Shown here in pieces: positions 2,826-57,324 of a stretch of 64,000 nt of DNA (positions within the stretch are counted from its first letter, which is position 1; each line of letters starts with the position of its first letter). A program made the translations under genes and the position numbers. Source of the DNA: Hahella sp. (lineage in GTDB: Bacteria > Pseudomonadota > Gammaproteobacteria > Pseudomonadales > Oleiphilaceae); NCBI GenBank assembly GCA_050299855.1, contig JBNKWQ010000011.1:25391-89390 (forward strand). Reading direction: 5' to 3'. The notes under the pieces were generated by a model. The model saw only the letters and a list, made by a program, of their open reading frames with translations. It made no database searches and had not been told where the DNA came from.

Positions 2826-3048
2826 GGTAGGAAGGAAACGCTGCGTTGACTTAGGCAATTATTTAATAAACATTACGAAATAATAAGATTTCCATTTTCG
2901 TTTTATTTACAATATTCAAGCAAAGACCATTCGTACTGACGGGTATTGCTTTCAAATCAAAGCCCGCCCAATACTTCTTGCGCAAATTCAGCGGGATTTA
3001 TAGACTGCGCGGTCCACACTCGCTTTTTGACAGGAATTCCAAACAGTA

Positions 3049-4194
3049 ATGCCAGAGACCATTCCGCCGGATTCGGTCGGTATCGTGACACCTGCGACTG
3101 CAGAGTTTAACGAGCCTTTGTTACTTGAAAGCGGCAAGCAAATCGAACAATACCAGCTGGTGTACGAAACCTACGGCACCCTGAACGCAGACCGCTCAAA
3201 TGCCGTGTTAATTTGTCACGCCCTCAGTGGTCACCACCACGCAGCCGGCTTCCATAGCATGGAAGATCGCAAACCCGGTTGGTGGGACAGCTGCATCGGG
3301 CCCGGCAAGCCTATAGACACAACTAAATTTTTTGTCGTCTCTCTGAACAATCTGGGAGGCTGCAATGGCTCCACCGGTCCTAACAGCCATAATCCCGCCA
3401 CCGGCAAACTTTACGGTCCCGATTTTCCAGTCGTGACTGTCAGAGACTGGGTATCCAGCCAGGCACGTCTGGCTGATTTCCTGCACATTGACACCTGGGC
3501 GGCAGTGATCGGTGGCAGCCTGGGAGGCATGCAGGCTCTACAGTGGTCTACCCAGTTTCCCGAGCGCATCAAACACGCCATCATCATCGCGTCGACGGCT
3601 AAGCTGACCACTCAGAATATTGCCTTCAACGAAGTGGCACGCAAGGCCATCACATCTGATCCGGATTTTCATGCAGGACGCTACTACGAACACGACACCT
3701 ACCCAAGTAAAGGCTTGATGCTGGCCCGCATGGTGGGGCACATTACTTACCTGTCAGATGCATCCATGGGTGAAAAATTCGGGCGCGACCTGCGTAACAA
3801 GGCCTTCAATTTTGGCTTGCTGGATGTTGAGTTCGAAATCGAGAGCTACCTGCATTATCAAGGCGAGCGTTTCTCCAAGAACTTTGACGCCAACACTTAT
3901 CTGCTGATGACCAGGGTACTGGACTACTTTGATCCTGCTCGTGAATACGGCAGCGATCTGGCCAAAGCATTGGATAAAGCCCAGTGCCGCTTCTTTGTCG
4001 CCTCGTTTTCAACCGACTGGCGCTTCTCACCGGAACGCTCTGAAGAATTGGTAAATGCGTTGATTGAAGCCAAGAAAGCTGTCAGTTATACCGAAATTGA
4101 TGCCCCTCATGGCCATGATGCCTTTCTTATTCCCAATCCTCGGTATATGGATGTATTCAACGCCTATATGATCCGTATTGCGGAGGGATTCTGA
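3049..4194 (+). CDS. metX: homoserine O-acyltransferase MetX (alpha/beta hydrolase)
   Basis: 381 aa with nucleophile elbow [12 protein letters not shown] and conserved HALSGHHH and [10 protein letters not shown] segments. It is followed by metW, as in pseudomonads. Confidence 0.9.
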
Positions 4195-4195
4195 T

Positions 4196-4789
4196 ATGCG
4201 CGCCGATCTGGAAATCATTAGCGACTGGATTAAACCCGGCAGCCAGGTACTCGACCTAGGCTGTGGCGATGGCACTCTGCTGGCTCATCTGCAGGAGCAT
4301 AAACAGGCTCAAGGTTACGGCCTGGAAATAGACAGTTCCAACATCACCGAGTGCCTGCGGAAGGGTGTCAATGTCATAGAACAGGACCTGGATGCCACGG
4401 ACTTATCCGTTATTAAAGACAAAAGCTTTGATGTCGTGGTCATGACACAGGCACTACAAGCCGTGCGTCACCCGGATATCATGCTGGAGGAAATGCTGCG
4501 CATGGGTAAAGAGTGCATTATCACTTTCCCCAATTTCGGCTATTGGCGACTACGTTTTTACCTACTGCGCAAAGGGCGCATGCCGGTCTCCAAGACTCTG
4601 CCCTATACTTGGTACAACACACCGAATATCCATCTTTGTACGTTTACGGATTTTGAAGCGCTGTGTTACCAGAAAAACATCCACATCCTGAGCCGCACCG
4701 TGGTGGACAACGAGCACCGCCAACGCTGGTTTAATCAAATGTGGCCGAACTTACTGGGCCAGATCGCGATTTATCACGTAACCCGCTAA
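4196..4789 (+). CDS. metW: methionine biosynthesis protein MetW
   Basis: The ATG lies 1 nt after the metX stop. N-terminus MRADLEIISDWI and SAM-methyltransferase-fold motif VLDLGCGDGTLL. The track ORF start at 4178 overlaps metX and is less likely. Confidence 0.85.
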   Translation: MRADLEIISDWIKPGSQVLDLGCGDGTLLAHLQEHKQAQGYGLEIDSSNITECLRKGVNVIEQDLDATDLSVIKDKSFDVVVMTQALQAVRHPDIMLEEMLRMGKECIITFPNFGYWRLRFYLLRKGRMPVSKTLPYTWYNTPNIHLCTFTDFEALCYQKNIHILSRTVVDNEHRQRWFNQMWPNLLGQIAIYHVTR

Positions 4790-5961: not shown

Positions 5962-7114
5962 GCGAGTGACTCTCACGCTTCCTCCACTGGCTCTTTATGT
6001 ACACGTGCCCTGGTGTGTGCGCAAATGTCCCTATTGTGACTTCAATTCTCATCAAGCCCGTGATGATCTGCCCGAACAGGCATATCTTGACGCCCTTTTG
6101 AGTGACCTCGCCTTTGAAGCTAAACAACTTGCAGACAATCACTCGCTACGACCACTGAGTTCGATATTCTTCGGTGGCGGAACCCCCAGCCTAGTCAATC
6201 CAGCGACTATTGGCCGAGTGATTACTGAAGCAAAACGGATTGTGGGGTTTACCGAAGACATCGAAATCACCCTGGAAGCCAACCCTGGCACAGTAGACTA
6301 CGAGAAATTTGATGGGCTCTATGCAGCAGGTGTAAACCGTCTTTCCATCGGCATCCAGAGTTTCAATCCCCAGCACCTGGAAGAGTTAGGCCGCATTCAC
6401 TCCAAAGATGACGCTTTGAAGGCTGTTGAACGCGCCAGACAGGCAGAATTCAGGAACATTAACCTGGACCTGATGTTTGGCTTGCCTGGTCAAACCTGCG
6501 AGCAGGCTCTAGCCGACCTACGCATCGCTACCGGATTAGCACCGGAACACTTGTCCTGGTATCAATTGACGATTGAGCCCAACACAGAATTCTACCGTCA
6601 TCCGCCGAAACTGCCTGAAGACGATACCCTATGGCAAATGCACCAGGACGGCATCGCCTTCCTTGAGCAGGCCGGCTACGCTCAGTATGAAGTATCCGCC
6701 TTTGCCCGGGCGCAACGCCAGGCAAAGCACAACCTCAATTACTGGCAATTCGGAGACTATGTCGCCATCGGCGCCGGGGCACATGGAAAATCAACCCATC
6801 CCAACAGCGGCGAAATTCTACGCTACTGGAAAACCCGCCTGCCCCAGCATTATCTGGCACGGGTGGATAACTATCGGGCAGGCAGCGAACAGATAACATC
6901 CGGTGATCTCCCCTTTGAATTCCTGATGAACAGCCTGCGTCTGAAACAGGGAGTTGACGCTGCCACCTTTACCACCGGCACGGGGTTACCTCTCTCAGCC
7001 CTGGAACCCACCCTATCCAACCTGCGCCAGCAGGGGCTGATCCACCCAGATCGCCTGCAATGCACCGACCAGGGCTACCTTTACCTTAACGAAGTCCTGC
7101 AGAAATTCATGTAA
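5933..7114 (+). CDS. hemW: radical SAM heme chaperone HemW (HemN-like)
   Basis: Radical-SAM motif CVRKCPYCDF plus a HemN C-terminal-like region. The true start is probably the GTG at 5966 (VTLTLPPLALYVHVPWC), just after the rdgB stop. Confidence 0.85.
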   Translation: MLWEVETKDERVTLTLPPLALYVHVPWCVRKCPYCDFNSHQARDDLPEQAYLDALLSDLAFEAKQLADNHSLRPLSSIFFGGGTPSLVNPATIGRVITEAKRIVGFTEDIEITLEANPGTVDYEKFDGLYAAGVNRLSIGIQSFNPQHLEELGRIHSKDDALKAVERARQAEFRNINLDLMFGLPGQTCEQALADLRIATGLAPEHLSWYQLTIEPNTEFYRHPPKLPEDDTLWQMHQDGIAFLEQAGYAQYEVSAFARAQRQAKHNLNYWQFGDYVAIGAGAHGKSTHPNSGEILRYWKTRLPQHYLARVDNYRAGSEQITSGDLPFEFLMNSLRLKQGVDAATFTTGTGLPLSALEPTLSNLRQQGLIHPDRLQCTDQGYLYLNEVLQKFM

Positions 7115-43887: not shown

Positions 43888-45342
43888 TCAAACGGATGTA
43901 TTGGGTGCTTTGGCGAGGCTGTCTGCCGAGGTAGTGTTGCCTGACGAGCGCCCGTAATGATCCTGCAACCGCACAATATCGTCCTCGCCAAGATAACTAC
44001 CCGATTGCACCTCAATAATTTCGAGCGGGATTTTACCCGGGTTAGCCAGTCGATGCACTTCGCCGATGGGAATGTAAGTGGACTGGTTTTCCGAGAGAAT
44101 AAATTCCAGCTCACCACAGGTCACCATGGCCGTTCCCTGGACCACAATCCAATGTTCTGCACGATGATGATGCTTTTGCAGCGAGAGACTGGCACCGGGA
44201 TTAACTTTGATACGCTTCACCTGAAAACGTGTCCCCATATCCACGGAGTCGTAACTGCCCCAAGGGCGAAAGACTTCCCGATGATTCAGTGTTTCCGGCC
44301 GCTCAACCGCATCCAGGCGCGCCACAATCTTCTTCACGTCCTGCACACGGTCCCGGTGGGCCACCATGACCGCATCCTGGGTATCAATCACCACAATATC
44401 TTTCACCCCGACCAACGCCACCAACTTGTTGTGGCTGCGGGCAAAACAGCCCTCGGATTCATGCACCATGACATCCCCCAACAGGGCATTGTTCTGACTA
44501 TCTTTATCATGCACGTCCCACATGGCAGACCAGGCACCAACGTCACTCCAACCCGCTTTAAGCGGCACGGTAACCGCGTCCTGGGTACGTTCCATCACGG
44601 CATAGTCAATCGAGTTGTCCGGGCAATGCGCGAGAATTTCTGCGGGTATACGCTTGAAGTCGAGATCTTCCTGGCAACTTTCAAAAGCCAGCTTACAGGT
44701 ATCATAGATATCAGTGTCAAACGTCTTTAATTCGTCCAGATAGCGTTGTGCACTCATCACAAACATGCCGCTGTTCCAGAGATATTCGCCACTGTCCAGA
44801 TACTGTTGCGCAGTGGCGGCATCCGGTTTTTCCTGAAAGGCGGCCACTGCAAATGCAGCATCACCAAAGCTGTCACCTTTATGGATATAACCATAACCAG
44901 TTTCAGGCTTATCCGGCTCAATGCCGAATAACACCAGCTTACCCTGCTCCGCAGCCTTTTCAGCCTTAGACAAGGCACTATGAAATGCGGCTATATCGGT
45001 GATGTGATGATCGGCAGGCAACACCAGCATAATCTGGTCGCGTCCGGACTGAAGAATCTGCAATGCAGCCATCGCAGCTGCCGGAGCAGTATTGCGACCG
45101 AATGGTTCCAGCAGTATGGAATCTGCTTTCTTGCTGATTTGCTGCAATTGCTCAGCCACAATGAATCGATGCTCTTCGTTGCAAACCACTACCGGCGCTT
45201 CCAATTCGGCGGGCAATCTCATCAGGGTCTGCTGAAACATGGTATCGCTACCCACCAAAGGCAAAAACTGCTTGGGATACAATTTGCGGGAAAGTGGCCA
45301 TAAGCGGGATCCGCTACCGCCGGAAAGAATGACTGGAATCAT
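43888..45342 (-). CDS. manC: mannose-1-phosphate guanylyltransferase / mannose-6-phosphate isomerase (type II PMI-GMP)
   Basis: N-terminal GGSGSRLWPLSR nucleotidyltransferase motif and a C-terminal cupin segment HHHRAEHWIVVQG. Confidence 0.9.
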   Translation of the reverse strand: MIPVILSGGSGSRLWPLSRKLYPKQFLPLVGSDTMFQQTLMRLPAELEAPVVVCNEEHRFIVAEQLQQISKKADSILLEPFGRNTAPAAAMAALQILQSGRDQIMLVLPADHHITDIAAFHSALSKAEKAAEQGKLVLFGIEPDKPETGYGYIHKGDSFGDAAFAVAAFQEKPDAATAQQYLDSGEYLWNSGMFVMSAQRYLDELKTFDTDIYDTCKLAFESCQEDLDFKRIPAEILAHCPDNSIDYAVMERTQDAVTVPLKAGWSDVGAWSAMWDVHDKDSQNNALLGDVMVHESEGCFARSHNKLVALVGVKDIVVIDTQDAVMVAHRDRVQDVKKIVARLDAVERPETLNHREVFRPWGSYDSVDMGTRFQVKRIKVNPGASLSLQKHHHRAEHWIVVQGTAMVTCGELEFILSENQSTYIPIGEVHRLANPGKIPLEIIEVQSGSYLGEDDIVRLQDHYGRSSGNTTSADSLAKAPNTSV

Positions 45343-45769
45343 TGTGGGTCTCCATATCCGTTAAAATTCGATGGCTGGGCTGATGTCAGCATGCGCTGAA
45401 GCTCCAGAAGCTGTGCAGCATTATCCGCGTCTTATGTGACGATTGCTGCAATTTCTTTCACTCAACCAGGCTGCGCCTGCTGGGTAAACAGCAACTGCTA
45501 TGCCAGCATCCATCTCCAAGATACAACTCAGGAGCATGAATACCATATCCTCACCGCCGGAACCATAAGGGCAACTTTACCCTTTTGTCATTTTAGTTAT
45601 AGAGGCTCGTCGAGCTTGCGATATGCACAGCTTTTGCCCGGTAATCACGGGCAAATCGCCATTAAGGGGCACATTAAGATAAGCCATTCCAATTCAAATT
45701 TTGTTGCAGAAAAGGCCGAAAAAAGGTATAAACTGCCGCCCTGAAGCATGAAGGCTAACGAGCCAAAAT

Positions 45770-45820
45770 CCAGAGCTTCAATTAAGAACACTTTTTTATA
45801 CGCGCCCGTAGCTCAGCTGG
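45770..45820 (+). repeat. duplicate of the tRNA-Arg upstream region plus the first 19 nt of the tRNA (5' tRNA fragment)
   Basis: 45770-45820 matches 45940-45991 (ccagagcttcaattaaga.cac.tttt.tatacGCGCCCGTAGCTCAGCTGG) with a few mismatches and one indel. Homology stops inside the D-loop. Confidence 0.8.
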
Positions 45821-45972
45821 GCGCAGGCGGAAATAATGAAACACTGTTTCATCCGCCGAAGCGGCACTTGCCTCTGGCAAGTGACTGGACCCCGAAGGGG
45901 GAGCGCTGCGGAATGCAACGCATTCCCAAGGGCAGTTTTCCAGAGCTTCAATTAAGAGCACCTTTTCTATAC

Positions 45973-46049
<77 letters not shown>

Positions 46050-46151
46050 TTTCACTTCGTTTCATTCTGCTTGTTCGGATTTCCGGCCTTATGAGCTTAG
46101 CTCTCCAGGCGTTCCAGCTAAAATTACTACGCAATTTTTTTACGCTTCCAC

Positions 46152-46168
46152 CCTCTCGGGCGCGCCAT
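46152..46168 (+). repeat. second copy of the tRNA-Arg 3'-end 17-mer (att-like direct repeat)
   Basis: CCTCTCGGGCGCGCCAT occurs at 46034-46050 (T-stem/acceptor/CCA of the tRNA) and again at 46152-46168. Confidence 0.8.
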
Positions 46169-46216
46169 CTTCCGTAAAAAGGCCCTGCTAATTGCAGGGC
46201 TTTTTACGGAAGATGG
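46165..46216 (+). terminator. long near-perfect hairpin with terminator-like core
   Basis: CCATCTTCCGTAAAAAGGCCCTGC-taatt-GCAGGGCTTTTTACGGAAGATGG has a ~23-bp stem with one bulge. The inner part, GGCCCTGC..GCAGGGC+TTTTT, resembles an intrinsic terminator. Confidence 0.55.
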
Positions 46217-46274
46217 TACGCATGAGGGACTTGGTTCAAATCTCCGTTCGACAAACAGCGCCAGCTGTTTGGAC

Positions 46275-46292
46275 GCTGGCAATATTGCCAGC
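46275..46292. repeat. perfect 18-bp palindrome
   Basis: GCTGGCAATATTGCCAGC. A third arm, GCCAGC, lies at 46260-46265, and a GGGGC-aaa-GCCCC hairpin follows at 46293-46305. Confidence 0.8.
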
Positions 46293-46409
46293 GGGGCAAA
46301 GCCCCGAAGATCGCCCTAAGGCGAACTGAGTCAATGCTCTCCCCGCAAACAACACCCAAGCCAAATTGCCGACCTTACAAACACAACTCCCAAATCACAC
46401 AACGCCCCC

Positions 46410-46540
46410 ACCTAGATCAAATGACATAAGATCTATCGCCTAATTACACAGGCGTTGCACTCAGGTGTAATGGTGGTCTTTCAAATACCACTTACTTCAC
46501 TCAGGACAGAGAAGTCACTCCCATCACAAGGACGATAGGT
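46410..46540 (+). promoter_or_regulatory. conserved 131-nt leader, copy 1 (upstream of toxin-like gene 1)
   Basis: It differs from 47792-47922 at only 3 positions. It contains inverted repeats TAGATC..GATCTA, ATTACAC-N15-GTGTAAT, GTGGT..ACCAC and ACTTC..GAAGT, plus an AAGGA SD 8 nt before the ATG. Confidence 0.6.
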
Positions 46541-47122
46541 ATGCCGCCTTTTATTACCCCTCATCAAACAAAAGTTGACCGGCTAATTGCAGAATTTGCC
46601 CAGAAGGACAAGCCGACCACAGCAGACTTCCTGGCACTGGAAAAGGTGGGGGTTCTATATGATCGTCTTGACCGTTATCGGATGGCTGCCATGAATATGA
46701 CGGAAGAGCAGCTTGAAAACGAAAAACATTCCCCGAAAAAGCTAGCTAGCAATATGAAGCGGACTGGCGATCCTCGACCCGCCAAACAGTGTGACGCGCA
46801 TGCAATTGTATCGGGCAGCCATCCCAGCTCTCTTTTGGCACGAGGTGTCTTAGCATGGCTCGGAATGCGAATTGACGACCCTCACAATGGTTGTTGGCTG
46901 CCTAGGGATTGGCACGACCGTAAGCACATGCCTAACCACCTCCGAAATGCTGTCCCCCACAGGCGTATTCACACAAAGACTTACTACGCATGGCTTTCCG
47001 GGTACATCAGGCCTGGAAGAATCAAAAACCCAGAACAACTTATTAATGCGCTACGTTTGGTGCGAACAATGCTTCAAGGTGGTAACGTTCCCGCTAATGT
47101 GATGCCCTCTACAGGACGGTGA
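46541..47122 (+). CDS. AHH/HNH-EndoVII-like putative nuclease toxin (paralogue 1)
   Basis: 193 aa with motifs CDAHAIVSGSHP, RIDDPHNGCWLP and RNAVPHRRIH...YYAWL. These fit the AHH-family layout (AHH...NG.wLP...H..H...Y), except that AHH reads AHA. No signal peptide or known trafficking domain. Confidence 0.55.
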   Translation: MPPFITPHQTKVDRLIAEFAQKDKPTTADFLALEKVGVLYDRLDRYRMAAMNMTEEQLENEKHSPKKLASNMKRTGDPRPAKQCDAHAIVSGSHPSSLLARGVLAWLGMRIDDPHNGCWLPRDWHDRKHMPNHLRNAVPHRRIHTKTYYAWLSGYIRPGRIKNPEQLINALRLVRTMLQGGNVPANVMPSTGR

Positions 47123-47125
47123 ACA

Positions 47126-47737
47126 ATGCTCTACACGATGATATTGGACTACAACAAATACTTGGTTTTGGCATGGGACAAAAAGCAGATTACTTCATTA
47201 GTGGGTGACATGCGCTCTTCAATGGAAAAGCGGATTGACATGTGGAATGCCCCTGTGTCTTTCAAGGGGGTCTTTAATGAACCTTTAAAAGTTACCTTCC
47301 CCAAAAACTCGAAAGAAGACCTCGCTTGTAAAATCCCTGATATCGCTGCTTTTCAAGGACGGTTATTTCTCAACCCCAAAGCCTATGAAGTCCTTAAACC
47401 ACTTATTGAAAATGATGGTGAGTTTCTTCCTGCAATATATGAACAGGGTGCAGGACACATTTTCATTCCATTACGAGTTGCGGAGGATGTCGACGGGTTA
47501 GATACCGATCTTAGTAAAAAGGATGAATGGGGACAGATAGAAAACCTGGCCTTCCATGAAAACAAGGTGAAAGACTGGAATGTGTTCCGCACTGCGTATA
47601 ACGATTATGACACCTTGCAGTGTCAGCAGGCAGTAAAGGACGCCATAGAAAGCGCTGATCTCAAGGGGCTCTATTTCACGCCGAATCTGGGGAATATTTT
47701 TCCCGAAGAGCCGGGAGCCGTGTCGAAGCTTAACTAG
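47126..47737 (+). CDS. putative cognate immunity protein (paralogue 1)
   Basis: 203 aa. The ATG is 3 nt after the toxin stop. It is a paralogue of 48506-49120 and 49793-50407, with a variable N-terminal third and a conserved core IPDIAAFQGRLFL...YEVLKPL.ENDGEFLP...DVDGLDT. Confidence 0.5.
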   Translation: MLYTMILDYNKYLVLAWDKKQITSLVGDMRSSMEKRIDMWNAPVSFKGVFNEPLKVTFPKNSKEDLACKIPDIAAFQGRLFLNPKAYEVLKPLIENDGEFLPAIYEQGAGHIFIPLRVAEDVDGLDTDLSKKDEWGQIENLAFHENKVKDWNVFRTAYNDYDTLQCQQAVKDAIESADLKGLYFTPNLGNIFPEEPGAVSKLN

Positions 47738-47791
47738 AAAAAACGGGACAGATTTTATTTTATAGTTCTAGCCCACCTTCATTAAATTACG

Positions 47792-47922
47792 ACCTAGATC
47801 AAATGACATAAGATCTATCGCCTAATTACACGGGCGTTGCACTCAGGTGTAATGGTGGTCTTTCAAATACCACTTACTTCGCTCAGGACAGTGAAGTCAC
47901 TCCCATCACAAGGACGATAGGT
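47792..47922 (+). promoter_or_regulatory. conserved 131-nt leader, copy 2 (upstream of toxin-like gene 2)
   Basis: See copy 1. The mismatches correspond to copy-1 positions 46450, 46499 and 46510. Confidence 0.6.
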
Positions 47923-48504
47923 ATGCCGCTTTTTATTACCCCTAACCACTCCAAGGTTGACCGCCTAGTTGCCGAGTTTGCTCAGAAGGATAAGCCAACC
48001 TCAGCAGACTTCTATGGCCTGAAGAACCTTGGGGTTATGTATGACCGGCTTGACCGATACCGTATGGAATCCCGGCATATGAGCGCTCAAAGTTTGGAAA
48101 GTGAAACCCATAACTCACGACGCCTTGCAAGTAACCTGAGGCGAACAGGAGATCCTCGCCCCTCAAAGAGATGTGATTGTCATGCAATCGTTTCTGGCAA
48201 TCATCCCGATGCCCTCATGGTACGGGGAGTGCTAGCATGGCTAAAGTTACGAATTGATGATCCTCACAATGGCTGCTGGCTTCCAAAAGATTGGGAGGAC
48301 CGTAAACACATGCCTGCCTACCTCCGAAATGCTGTGCCACATAGACGGTTACACCATCAAAAATATTATGAATGGCTTAGTAGTGCCATCTCCCCCACAA
48401 CTATTACTACGTCACAGCAACTGATTAATGCGTTGCGTATGGTACGGACGATGTTGCAAAGTGGAAATGTTCCGAAAAGCGTAATGCCCACCACAGGTCG
48501 CTAA
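47923..48504 (+). CDS. AHH/HNH-EndoVII-like putative nuclease toxin (paralogue 2)
   Basis: 193 aa, colinear with 46541-47122 without gaps but substantially diverged. Motifs CDCHAIVSGNHP, RIDDPHNGCWLP and RNAVPHRRLH...YYEWL. Confidence 0.55.
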   Translation: MPLFITPNHSKVDRLVAEFAQKDKPTSADFYGLKNLGVMYDRLDRYRMESRHMSAQSLESETHNSRRLASNLRRTGDPRPSKRCDCHAIVSGNHPDALMVRGVLAWLKLRIDDPHNGCWLPKDWEDRKHMPAYLRNAVPHRRLHHQKYYEWLSSAISPTTITTSQQLINALRMVRTMLQSGNVPKSVMPTTGR

Positions 48505-48505
48505 A

Positions 48506-49120
48506 ATGCTATATACGTTGATATTAGATTCAAACAAATACCTTTCCCCTTTACTGGATAGAGCCCAAATACACCGGATACTCGGTGAAACTACAGAAGA
48601 AAATGTGAAGTACCGTATTGATTTCAAGGCACTTCCCGTTTCGTATAAGGGTGTTTTTAATGAGCCTTTGAACGTTTCATTCCCCAAAGCCCTGAAAAGT
48701 CAAAAAAACTGCGAAATCCCCGATATTGCTGCTTTCCAAGGCCGTTTGTTTCTCGGTCTGAAAGCCTACGAAGTTCTGAAGCCGCTGCTAGACAACGATG
48801 GCGAGTTTCTTCCCGCAAATTATGAGCTAGGTAAAGGGTATATCTATATTCCCTTAAAGGTTGCAGAGGATGTCGATGGTCTGGACACCGAGCTTAGCAG
48901 AAAGGATGAGTGGGGACAGGTTGCTAACCTGGCCTTCCATGAAGACAGGGTTAAAGCTTGGAATGTATTCAGGACCGAGTTTAATGGCTACCACACATTG
49001 CAATGTCAGCAGGCTGTAAAAGACGCCATTGAAAAAGCTGGTTTCACAGGGCTGTACATTACACCAAACTTGGGGAACATCTTCCCTGAGGAGCCTGGGG
49101 CAGTATCAAAGATCAATTAG
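48506..49120 (+). CDS. putative cognate immunity protein (paralogue 2)
   Basis: 204 aa. The ATG is 1 nt after the toxin-2 stop. Paralogue of 47126-47737. Confidence 0.5.
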   Translation: MLYTLILDSNKYLSPLLDRAQIHRILGETTEENVKYRIDFKALPVSYKGVFNEPLNVSFPKALKSQKNCEIPDIAAFQGRLFLGLKAYEVLKPLLDNDGEFLPANYELGKGYIYIPLKVAEDVDGLDTELSRKDEWGQVANLAFHEDRVKAWNVFRTEFNGYHTLQCQQAVKDAIEKAGFTGLYITPNLGNIFPEEPGAVSKIN

Positions 49121-49129
49121 GAATAGTCG

Positions 49130-49747
49130 TTGATAATGTTTCCGGCATTCGACTCGTTACAGTTAACTACCCGTCTACTCAAGCTTAACCAAAAACAACA
49201 ACTTGCTTTTGGTGCTTCCTGCTGTGAACGCATGCTTCCAAGCTATCTGGCGTTCCAGGAAGATAGTGGCTGGGGAAATTTTGAGCCTCTGCGAAGGGGA
49301 TTGGACTTTGTATGGACCGCACTAGAAGACGACGGATTCAGCCAGAAAGAGGTTGAACGGCTTCTCGATCAGTGTGACGAAGCTTATCCGGATTCAGCAG
49401 ATTTCGAGTCACCCTATGTTCCCTATGCCCAGGACGCTTACTATGTCGTTGGCTTCCTGTTGGATGTCTTTCTCGGCTATGAAATAGATGCATTTGTTGA
49501 AATCGCCACCTATACGATTCAAACCGTAGAGGCTTACATACAGGAAACCGAGCAGTTGGAACCTACGGACCCTGGCATTGAGACTAAAATAGTCAACCAC
49601 CCCATTATGCAAAGAGAGCTGGCACAGCAAGAGTCAGACTTGAAGGAAATAGAGCGGAACTCCGAGGTCGGCTTGGACTTTATTCAGGCATTTAGACATT
49701 CATGGGGAAACAATGGGAAGAGTAATATCGATCTGCCTATTACCTGA
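49130..49747 (+). CDS. DUF416 (YjaG-like) family protein
   Basis: Colinear with my recollection of E. coli YjaG: L...L..W....F.ASCCERMLPSY..F......G..........DFVW. The start is TTG 49130 (AGGA 7 nt upstream) or ATG 49136. Confidence 0.55.
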   Translation: MIMFPAFDSLQLTTRLLKLNQKQQLAFGASCCERMLPSYLAFQEDSGWGNFEPLRRGLDFVWTALEDDGFSQKEVERLLDQCDEAYPDSADFESPYVPYAQDAYYVVGFLLDVFLGYEIDAFVEIATYTIQTVEAYIQETEQLEPTDPGIETKIVNHPIMQRELAQQESDLKEIERNSEVGLDFIQAFRHSWGNNGKSNIDLPIT

Positions 49748-49792
49748 AAAACAATGCGTATTTTGCAGCAACTGGAAAACTCCCCATTCATC

Positions 49793-50407
49793 ATGCTCCA
49801 CACATTATTGCTGAACTCCAAAAAGTATTTAGGACCAGTCATTGACGACAAACAAGTTGCATCCATCGTCGGGGAGGCAAGTAATGACAATATCACTCAA
49901 CGCATAGATATGTACCATGGCCCTGCCACGCGCAGAGGGGTATTTAAGGAGCCTCTTCGTGTGTCCTATCCGGTATTCAACAAAGCAGACAAGAAGAAAT
50001 CCATCCCGGATATCGGCGCGTTTCAGGGGCGCTTGTTTCTCAGCACGGCAGCATATGAAATTCTGAAGCCCCTGATTGAAAACGACGGTGAGTTTCTATC
50101 GGCCGTCTACGAACAGGGAGACGGCTACATCTTTACACCTTTGCGTGTTGTGGAAGAGGTGGATGGACTCGATACAGAAATTAGCAGGAAGAATGACTGG
50201 GGGGATGTCATTCACTTGGCATTTCATGAAGAGCGAGTGGCCGACTGGAAGGTATTTAGAACCGAGTACAATGCTTATACATCCTTGTACTGTCAGCAGG
50301 AAGTCAAAGACGCCATTGAGCAGGCTCAGCTAACCGGTTTGTACTTTTCGCCAGATCTGGCCAACATTTACCCTGAAGAACAAAGTGCTGTTATTAATCC
50401 CAACTAA
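49793..50407 (+). CDS. orphan immunity-like paralogue 3 (no adjacent toxin gene)
   Basis: From the ATG at 49793, MLHTLLLNSKKYL... is colinear with the two immunity-like proteins (IPDIGAFQGRLFL, LKPLIENDGEFL, EVDGLDTE). Confidence 0.5.
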   Translation: MLHTLLLNSKKYLGPVIDDKQVASIVGEASNDNITQRIDMYHGPATRRGVFKEPLRVSYPVFNKADKKKSIPDIGAFQGRLFLSTAAYEILKPLIENDGEFLSAVYEQGDGYIFTPLRVVEEVDGLDTEISRKNDWGDVIHLAFHEERVADWKVFRTEYNAYTSLYCQQEVKDAIEQAQLTGLYFSPDLANIYPEEQSAVINPN

Positions 50408-50614
50408 AGGAACGTCTCTGTGTCTGTACTCCCCCCTCCCGCACCGTTAATGTGAATCTCTTTTTTAGTCAACGGGCAGGCTCTATGCACCATCCTTACT
50501 ATCTGGCAGACACTACATACCACCGCTCTCCAGCCGATCCATAATATGACCCTTCATGCCGCAAGATCTCTGAGGTAGCGATCTGCGGTAACTTCAATAC
50601 AGAACATCAGGTGG

Positions 50615-57154: not shown

Positions 57155-57229
57155 CACCACTGGCTCCCGTTTCAGCAAGGCCTTAGCTTCACACTGACTA
57201 ATTCAGAATATCCAACATTAATCCCAAGC

Positions 57230-57324
57230 TTAGTACTTAATTCCAAACCAAGTACTTAATTCCAAACCAAGTACCTAATTCCAAACCAAGTACTTAATTC
57301 CAAACCAAGCACTTAATTCCAAAC
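57230..57324. repeat. tandem repeat, 5 copies of a 19-bp unit (CAAGTACTTAATTCCAAAC)
   Basis: Head-to-tail units at 57230-57248, 57249-57267, 57268-57286, 57287-57305 and 57306-57324, with single-base variants. They lie in the divergent intergenic region between the acyl-CoA synthetase and TRAP genes. Confidence 0.9.

Follow-up and report, generated by a model that had tools for sequence, protein, structure and literature searches.

Near-identical leaders in a tandem array of AHH-nuclease toxin and Imm11 immunity genes of Hahella sp. probably reflect recent recombination over two constrained cis-elements

Two tandem modules in the 64-kb stretch of Hahella sp. DNA analysed in this work (hereafter the window), each composed of an AHH-nuclease toxin gene (T) and an Imm11 immunity gene (I), are preceded by 131-nt leaders that are almost identical, whereas the genes behind them have diverged sharply. 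Our analysis suggested that this near-identity is probably the product of recent recombination or gene conversion acting over two constrained cis-elements, and that the leader together with the 5′ end of T probably serves as a constant arm for cassette exchange. The components of the array and its border are as follows:

45973..46049, + strand: tRNA-Arg(CCG), upstream of leader copy 1; it borders the array, with integration (att-like) scars.
46410..46540, + strand: leader copy 1, 5′ of T1; 131 nt with three mismatches to copy 2; homologous leaders precede the closest relatives of T.
46410..46561, + strand: full homogenised tract of copy 1 (leader plus the first 21 nt of T1); 152 nt with four differences, against 31% divergence beyond it.
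46541..47122, + strand: T1, a stand-alone AHH (HNH/EndoVII) nuclease toxin of 193 aa (PF14412, E 6.7e-11, above the curated cut-off).
47126..47737, + strand: I1, Imm11 immunity protein (PF07791, E 5.5e-5, above the curated cut-off).
47738..47791, + strand: junction of 54 nt from the I1 stop to leader copy 2, unlike the sequence upstream of copy 1; no terminator was called in it.
47792..47922, + strand: leader copy 2, 5′ of T2; three mismatches to copy 1.
47792..47943, + strand: partner homogenised tract of copy 2, which pairs with 46410..46561.
47923..48504, + strand: T2, AHH nuclease toxin (PF14412, E 2.1e-8, above the curated cut-off), 68% identical to T1.
48506..49120, + strand: I2, Imm11 immunity protein (PF07791), 70% identical to I1 in protein.
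49130..49747, + strand: DUF416 gene (PF04222, E 6.6e-32); the cassette slot is bounded on its right by a conserved arm made up of this gene and the 3′ end of I.
49754..50407, + strand: I3, an orphan Imm11 gene (PF07791) whose true start is likely 49793; the orthologue in the related locus L089 is called at 204 aa.

I1, I2 and I3 all exceeded the PF07791 cut-off of 22.1 bits, and an Imm11 gene lies directly 3′ of each toxin gene, at a distance of 3 nt (T1–I1) or 1 nt (T2–I2). A PF14412 toxin, an adjacent PF07791 gene, and a constant upstream part followed by a variable cassette part are features of AHH/Imm11 polymorphic toxin–immunity modules, and T1–I1 and T2–I2 are regarded here as putative AHH-nuclease toxin/Imm11 immunity pairs. 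The N-terminal trafficking domain or secretion linkage of such modules (T6SS, T5SS, T7SS or a lipoprotein signal) was not found within ~6 kb. Residues 1–69 of T1 and T2 contained no Pfam or NCBIfam domain, no signal sequence was present, and no secretion genes, T6SS included, were detected within ~6 kb of the array. Searches of T, I, DUF416 and I3 with PADLOC and against NCBIfam and PDB sequences returned no matches.

Comparison of the two leaders, which are offset by 1382 nt, revealed that 3 of the 131 positions differ, at 46450 (A in copy 1, G in copy 2), 46499 (A/G) and 46510 (A/T), exactly as an earlier note made from the sequence alone had recorded. That note also had conservation collapsing right at the ATG, which needs correction: the near-identity runs past the start codon to 46561 with a single extra mismatch at 46548, giving four differences in 152 nt. 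The probability of so few differences is ~1e-19 at the rate of the coding sequence and ~1e-10 at the non-synonymous rate alone. The 5′ edge of the repeat is sharp, as just 5–8 of 30 bases match directly upstream of it. In the coding sequences, T1 and T2 share 68% of their residues and 68.6% of their nucleotides, with a saturated pS of 0.69 and with 55% of fourfold sites different, which bears out the earlier estimate that about a third of the residues differ; their first 30 codons are less diverged (pS 0.44) than the remainder (pS 0.62–0.82). Past the near-identical tract, toxin and immunity genes alike show ~68% identity, and their synonymous sites have reached saturation. With 68.6% identity in the toxin genes against 97.7% in the leader, the note was also right to set aside a recent segmental duplication that kept the coding sequences identical.

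The window holds no third copy of the leader. It is identical to contig JBNLDN010000071.1 of assembly GCA_050304355.1, and the array is the same in all recovered assemblies of the source species, with no polymorphism seen among these. A look-up of the neighbouring ManC protein, by which strains with other arrays were sought, returned the same arrangement only. Two Logan contigs (L002 and L003) end inside the leader repeat, 23 nt 5′ of the T2 ATG.

To compare leaders beyond this species, all close relatives in the databases were used. The T1/T2 subclade, characterized by the N-terminus MP[LP]FITP, forms three 90%-identity clusters in the protein collection, and every member was retrieved. A homologous leader was present in all subclade loci, which carry a T1-type toxin (L004 and L090), a T2-type toxin (L089) or a third toxin type that is 76% identical to T1 (L005, L006 and L007). 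The comparison comprised seven leaders of three types, namely type A of the window, that of L004, and type B of the lineage including L090, L005 and L089. Protein-guided scans yielded loci from genomes (67), metagenomes (9) and viruses (2); T identity is at most 65% in each, and an alignable leader was found in none of them. The synonymous divergence of orthologous T genes (pS 0.37–0.39, dS ~0.5, synonymous identity ~62%) was taken as the neutral yardstick, and the leader was resolved into three parts:

46410..46451, + strand (copy 2, 47792..47833): 5′ block of 42 nt with the 23-bp palindrome TAGATC-N11-GATCTA at 46413..46435; candidate operator or promoter-proximal site.
46452..46498, + strand (copy 2, 47834..47880): middle spacer of 47 nt, of fixed length and free sequence.
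46499..46540, + strand (copy 2, 47881..47922): 3′ block of 42 nt with CACAAGGA (Shine-Dalgarno) just 5′ of the ATG.

The 5′ block is 90–100% identical between lineages and 98–100% within a lineage (it is absent from leader copy 2 of L089), and it begins at the same base in all lineages. The 3′ block is 76–90% identical between lineages and 93–95% within a lineage, and its CACA(A/T)GGA motif also precedes distant T homologues in L008 and L011. Measured against the synonymous yardstick, the conservation of the 5′ block has P values of 3e-6 to 4e-9 and that of the 3′ block of 1e-3 to 1e-4. The middle spacer is only 47–66% identical between leader types, without indels, and thus evolves at the neutral rate or faster between lineages; within lineage B it is 94–100% identical, and between the two copies of the window 100%. 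These values suggest that both outer blocks are under purifying selection between lineages and that the middle is unconstrained, although statements on selection, like those on covariation, rest on few lineages because the databases hold only three independent leader types. Part of the outer-block conservation could also stem from inter-lineage recombination instead of selection. Since the middle is neutral and the outer blocks are constrained, purifying selection accounts for the outer blocks only, and the complete identity of the unconstrained spacer between the two copies therefore reflects recent recombination or conversion, that is, recent common ancestry.

In the window, the palindrome TAGATC-N11-GATCTA occurs at the two leaders only, and it is probably a protein-binding site or a promoter-proximal element. 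A sigma-70 promoter scan of the three leader types called no promoter. The best candidate found by eye, TT(A/G)CAC-N16-T(G/T)T(A/T)AT at 46444..46471, is weak, its −10 hexamer having no A in second position, and is the only recurrent one. LexA, sigma-54, sigma-32 and ECF-type motifs were sought by eye, none convincing. A terminator scan of the three leader types gave a single weak terminator-like hairpin, located in the unconstrained middle and no more than chance would produce. The upstream tRNA transcript has a clear terminator-like hairpin near 46182..46200, with its T-run on the + strand and the scan call on the − strand, and the sequence from there to 46410 is not conserved in other lineages. 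The 5′ block is thus the best candidate for a promoter-proximal or operator element, a role that we infer from its conservation. Leader copy 2 of L089 lacks this block yet precedes an intact T2-like gene, so the block is not indispensable for keeping the gene.

Comparison of leader and coding divergence across module pairs set the two copies of the window apart from orthologous modules. Between the window's tandem paralogues, the leaders are 97.7% identical and the coding sequences 68.6%. Between the T1 module and its orthologue in L004, the corresponding values are 83.2% and 88.3%, and between the T1 module and L005 they are 74.6% and 70.5%. In orthologous modules, then, leader divergence equals or exceeds that of the gene, and in the tandem paralogues of the window the relation is reversed. 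The lineage of the genome predicts the leader type but not the toxin type: type A precedes both T1 and T2 in the window, type B precedes a T1-type toxin (L090), a T2-type toxin (L089) and the third type (L005), and T1-type genes stand behind all three leader types. The tract accordingly groups by genome and its flanking sequence by gene type; it is sharply bounded, far exceeds its flanks in similarity and also surpasses what the orthologue comparisons predict, as is characteristic of concerted evolution or gene conversion.

Mosaic breakpoints were found in the related loci as well. In a sliding comparison, L005 and L090 share the same upstream flank and are 92–100% identical from ~−335 to ~+110 relative to the ATG; beyond ~+110 the identity is 60–70% through T and I, and the downstream sequences are unrelated. 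L089 and L090 are 95–98% identical from mid-leader to ~+60, ~65% identical through T and I, and again 92–98% identical from ~110 nt before the end of I into DUF416, the immunity gene of L090 having a chimeric 3′ end. The DUF416 gene follows an I2-like gene in L089 and an I1-like gene in L090. This mosaic indicates that the T1–I1-type cassette of L090 occupies the slot held by T2–I2 in L089 and in the window. L089 itself contains two leader copies. The full one, at the flank shared with L005 and L090, is fused to the first ~85 nt of a T gene alone and is followed by ParE-type genes; then come a duplicated 3′ fragment of I3 with its downstream sequence and the leader without a 5′ block in front of the T2-like gene. 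The 3′ breakpoints vary among these cases, lying +21, ~+60 and ~+110 nt into the coding sequence, a variation better explained by homologous recombination or gene conversion than by a site-specific mechanism. In 14 other genomes with at least two T copies among the fetched loci (including Marinibactrum, Microbulbifer, Endozoicomonas and Hahella), dispersed T paralogues showed no excess similarity in the 150 nt 5′ of the ATG; the effect is therefore local and recombinational, and not due to a family-wide regulatory RNA or element.

The near-identity could alternatively be explained if the whole 131 nt were a structured 5′ UTR or cis-regulatory RNA held identical by purifying selection. The four inverted repeats described in the earlier note (TAGATC-N11-GATCTA, ATTACAC-N15-GTGTAAT, GTGGT-N9-ACCAC and ACTTC-N12-GAAGT) are indeed all present, and all three substitutions do fall outside the paired arms. 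Short inverted repeats are, moreover, mildly enriched in the leader (five having stems of 5 bp or longer, where 1.5 would be expected; P ~0.013), and the spacer has a constant length of 47 nt. However, an Rfam scan of 45300..50600 with E up to 10 gave no match in either leader, and the single-sequence fold was no more stable than those of shuffled sequences (z of −1.08 and −0.92 for the + and − strands, respectively). No covariation emerged from five homologous leaders either by RNAalifold or by pair counting: RNAalifold detected not one compensatory pair and imposed a covariation penalty of +2.52, at the low power afforded by three leader types, and the four helices scored no better than shuffles on covariation measures. 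Of the cells of these helices 82.6% pair, a value to be expected of helices that had been derived from one of the aligned sequences. Helices 3 and 4 are only 72% paired and are broken in lineage B, and the middle of the leader, which holds both of them together with one half of helix 2, shows neutral divergence between lineages. The two longest inverted repeats lie in or beside the conserved 5′ block, which accords with a protein-binding palindrome no less than with a hairpin. A structured RNA spanning the leader is thus highly improbable. The note's first proposal, of a cis-regulatory element either kept by purifying selection or made uniform by gene conversion, is largely right; what holds of it is the constraint on the two outer blocks and the homogenisation, and what fails is the constraint on the middle and the RNA structure.

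The second proposal of that note derived the leader, as a relic, from the constant region of some larger gene for a polymorphic toxin, T1 and T2 being orphan CT cassettes in the style of cdiA-CT and rhs-CT. The T frame is, as stated there, open for 37 codons upstream, to the TAA at 46427..46429, and lacks a start codon in this part; gene callers extend the ORF upstream in lineage B (219 and 253 aa), and C-terminal AHH domains are indeed known from large polymorphic toxins (PMC3482391). Contrary to such an origin, the T gene has its own AAGGA Shine-Dalgarno sequence, likewise noticed before, and its own ATG, the in-frame TAA sits inside the conserved 5′ block, and in L005 a 1-nt deletion just before the ATG breaks the frame. 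A protein search with T1 plus the 37 upstream codons returned 76 homologues, all of them stand-alone AHH proteins of 141–214 aa (about 193 aa being typical), in which coverage stops at the T start (84% of the query) and the leader-encoded part is aligned in none. The T ORFs reconstructed from 67 GTDB representative-genome loci are likewise all stand-alone, at ~193–204 aa, except for two broken copies. A leader HMM run over 92 fetched loci matched at T-linked positions only, and a 26-mer of the leader had zero matches in the metagenome and viral collections (L006, a JGI contig with the 26-mer, evidently lies outside that collection). Neither the databases searched nor the 64-kb window contained a 3′ coding match of a full-length toxin or any parent toxin gene. 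An origin as a relic is therefore largely refuted, and we consider it extremely improbable; the handle idea survives as a description of behaviour, in that the leader and the 5′ end of T act as a constant homology arm for cassette exchange and stacking.

Readings based on mobile elements were weighed on the same evidence. The palindromic 5′ block might be a site-specific recombination site, att-like or integron-like, that captures T–I cassettes; the palindrome lies at the extreme 5′ edge of the repeat, all lineages share one start position of the conserved block, and the array adjoins a tRNA gene with att-like scars. The variable 3′ breakpoints are, however, typical of homologous recombination, the duplication boundary falls outside the palindrome rather than within it, no integrase gene is located within 5 kb, only two leader copies are present, and copy 2 of L089 was joined in mid-leader without the 5′ block, all of which makes this reading very unlikely. 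Nor is the leader an overall imperfect palindrome as attC is; an integron attC site was considered separately and rejected, as the leader has local short inverted repeats only, in two copies, with no integrase within 5 kb. Least plausible of all is a MITE-like small mobile element bearing a promoter and inserted independently before both toxin genes. A sharp 5′ boundary and near-identical copies would fit such an insertion, but the identity extends into the coding sequence, leader homologues in the loci searched are always attached to T and found nowhere else, and neither terminal inverted repeats beyond ACCTA/TAGGT nor a target-site duplication could be recognised. Finally, the 42-nt 5′ block might be a dedicated cis site, either the operator of a regulator or a recombination site, and might form with the 47-nt spacer and the RBS block a portable leader for stand-alone AHH/Imm11 cassettes, which we regard as unlikely. 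If it were true, interchangeable toxin–immunity modules would be stacked in a homology-guided, integron-like manner and co-regulated without a large delivery gene.

Recent recombination or gene conversion over constrained elements, the explanation that we favour, would operate as follows. Each leader–T–I module would be a self-contained, autonomous AHH-nuclease toxin/Imm11 immunity operon, in which the 3′ block supplies the ribosome-binding region and the spacer keeps its length but not its sequence. The leader and the conserved first 20–110 nt of the T gene would constitute the left arm, and the 3′ end of I and DUF416 the right arm, between which diverged T–I cassettes would be replaced or stacked. 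The two leader copies would have been made identical recently, given their divergence of 2–3% against a dS of ~0.5 between lineages. This may have happened through gene conversion between the tandem leaders, or through a homologous or homology-facilitated event that stacked a second, long-diverged T–I cassette behind a copy of the resident leader; as stacking, the latter would have placed T1–I1 ahead of leader–T2–I2–DUF416–I3. The data fit either route.

The array works like known cases of toxin–immunity exchange, and differs from them in its mostly non-coding arm, in its small, complete, stand-alone toxins, and in that no delivery system lies nearby (~6 kb). In the T6SS loci of Vibrio cholerae, strains exchange diverged effector–immunity pairs through homologous recombination at conserved flanks, arrays of orphan immunity genes accumulate downstream, and the loci are mosaic, with gene trees that disagree with strain trees (Kirchberger et al., 2017; PMC5361080). 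Exchange or stacking at conserved flanks and a downstream orphan immunity gene are shared by the array of the window. On the other side, the left flank in V. cholerae is coding (vgrG, tap-1 or paar), whereas here it consists mostly of non-coding leader plus 7–35 codons. In V. cholerae, a replaced module usually leaves nothing but its immunity gene; here, both toxin genes have stayed intact, and no T6SS gene lies within ~6 kb. Orphan cdiA-CT/cdiI and rhs-CT/rhsI cassettes rely on short upstream homology that lets recombination swap toxins (Koskiniemi et al., 2014, as cited in PMC5361080; Zhang et al., 2012, PMC3482391). They resemble the present modules in having a short homology tract upstream of a divergent toxin–immunity cassette; however, they possess no translation start of their own and their tract is a coding piece of the main gene, whereas T1 and T2 are complete 193-aa genes with a Shine-Dalgarno sequence and ATG and with no parent gene found.

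AHH/Imm11 pairs of Myxococcus xanthus are established kin-discrimination modules (PMC12077181; Zhang et al., 2012, PMC3482391). They belong to a T6SS type and to a SitA5 type that relies on outer-membrane exchange, and they come with numerous paralogues and additional imm11 genes. Judged by the passages of PMC12077181 considered here, they are like the present pairs in the combination of PF14412 and PF07791, in the immunity gene located directly downstream, in the multiple paralogous loci and in the extra imm11 gene, and unlike them in that the M. xanthus toxins have delivery determinants (T6SS association or a lipoprotein signal), whereas T1 and T2 have neither a signal sequence nor a recognised trafficking domain. 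The same passages make no mention of a shared non-coding leader.

Unlike colicins, T1 and T2 have leaders in which no LexA box or sigma-70 consensus was found. Colicin promoters have recognisable SOS (LexA) boxes, and colicin proteins have large translocation and receptor domains. In colicin and S-pyocin operons, conservation of the promoter/operator and the N-terminal part contrasts with sharp divergence of the C-terminal nuclease and its immunity gene, and recombination takes place at the boundary; the evolution of nuclease colicin operons was reportedly described as mosaic by Riley in 1998 (cited in PMC5361080).

These results have a practical side, in that near-identical upstream repeats in such arrays reflect recombination and not RNA structure, and in that they break short-read assemblies, as in L002 and L003. 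Recombinational shuffling is in itself ordinary for toxin–immunity genes, and the array presents a clean, small example of how their diversity is generated. Its constant arm is mostly non-coding, in contrast with the classic cases, where the homology comes from a large delivery domain or an upstream structural gene. Moreover, the two short, delimited conserved blocks of the leader provide a candidate control region of a stand-alone AHH toxin.

The toxin array, which comprises the tandem modules of AHH nuclease toxin genes (T1, T2) and Imm11 immunity genes (I1, I2), a DUF416 gene and the orphan Imm11 gene I3, probably occupies a decayed island at tRNA-Arg(CCG), because it lies just downstream of this tRNA gene, which is surrounded by integration scars (45769-46167). 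The features of this region are as follows.

45973-46049 (+): tRNA-Arg(CCG), bordering the toxin array
45769-45820 and 45939-45991: duplication of the tRNA-Arg(CCG) promoter region together with ~19 nt from the start of the tRNA, 93-97% identical
46034-46049, again at 46152-46167: direct repeat of the last 16 nt of tRNA-Arg(CCG)
46011-46144 (-): below-threshold Rfam match to HPnc0260, 47.4 bits vs gathering score 59
46242-46342 (+): below-threshold Rfam match to AaHKsRNA22, 31.1 bits vs gathering score 39.8

The two copies of the promoter duplication are separated by ~118 nt of unrelated, hairpin-rich sequence. The two RNA matches, located between the tRNA and the near-identical leader that precedes T1 and T2, are probably fortuitous or tRNA-related.

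The repeated leader fragments assemblies. Two Logan contigs (L002 and L003), assembled independently from short reads of the same organism, both have their position 1 at 23 nt 5′ of the T2 start codon, and this break point falls within the leader. Elsewhere in the window, a 19-nt unit (AGTACTTAATTCCAAACCA) is repeated in tandem at 57218-57324 (~5 copies, 95% match) and bears no relation to the leader.

The DUF416 (YjaG-like) gene is followed by I3 both in the window (49130-50407) and in the related lineage L089 (5503-6815), which share the order I2, DUF416, I3 with a DNA identity of 80-97%. The I3 reading frame is probably too long at its start, with 49793 as the likely start; from this position it gives MLHTLLLNSKKYL, in agreement with I1 and I2. 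The DUF416 protein is possibly another immunity-type protein.

L089, a metagenomic genome, also carries a decayed array (2927-4290), in which a 46-aa T remnant is joined to a full leader. Small genes come next, a ParE toxin among them, then a duplicated I3 3′ fragment with its downstream sequence (3936-4193 matches 6710-6969), and finally an intact T2-like gene preceded by a 5′-truncated leader. In another relative, L090 (1500-2130), the immunity gene is I1-like but ends in a 3′ part of I2 type, and is therefore chimeric. The DUF416 gene located 3′ of it shows a 1-nt deletion followed by divergence, and may be a pseudogene or may reflect an assembly error.

The T-I modules are found in mobile or defence-island contexts (L011 9032-11205, L093 and L094), and rarely on phages. 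Among 2.9 million viral contigs, a T relative is present on just 2. The Sessilibacter module (L011) adjoins phage-P4-cII-like and Peptidase_M78 genes. A further module (L008 7084-9187), whose T is 65% identical to T1, has a VapBC pair as its neighbour. The MAG that carries it was produced in the same study, and the module is present in one of the same sequencing runs. Upstream of its T, the sole part of the leader retained is the CATCACA.GGAC ribosome-binding motif. If L008 belongs to the same species, leader homogenisation would be confined to the tandem array.
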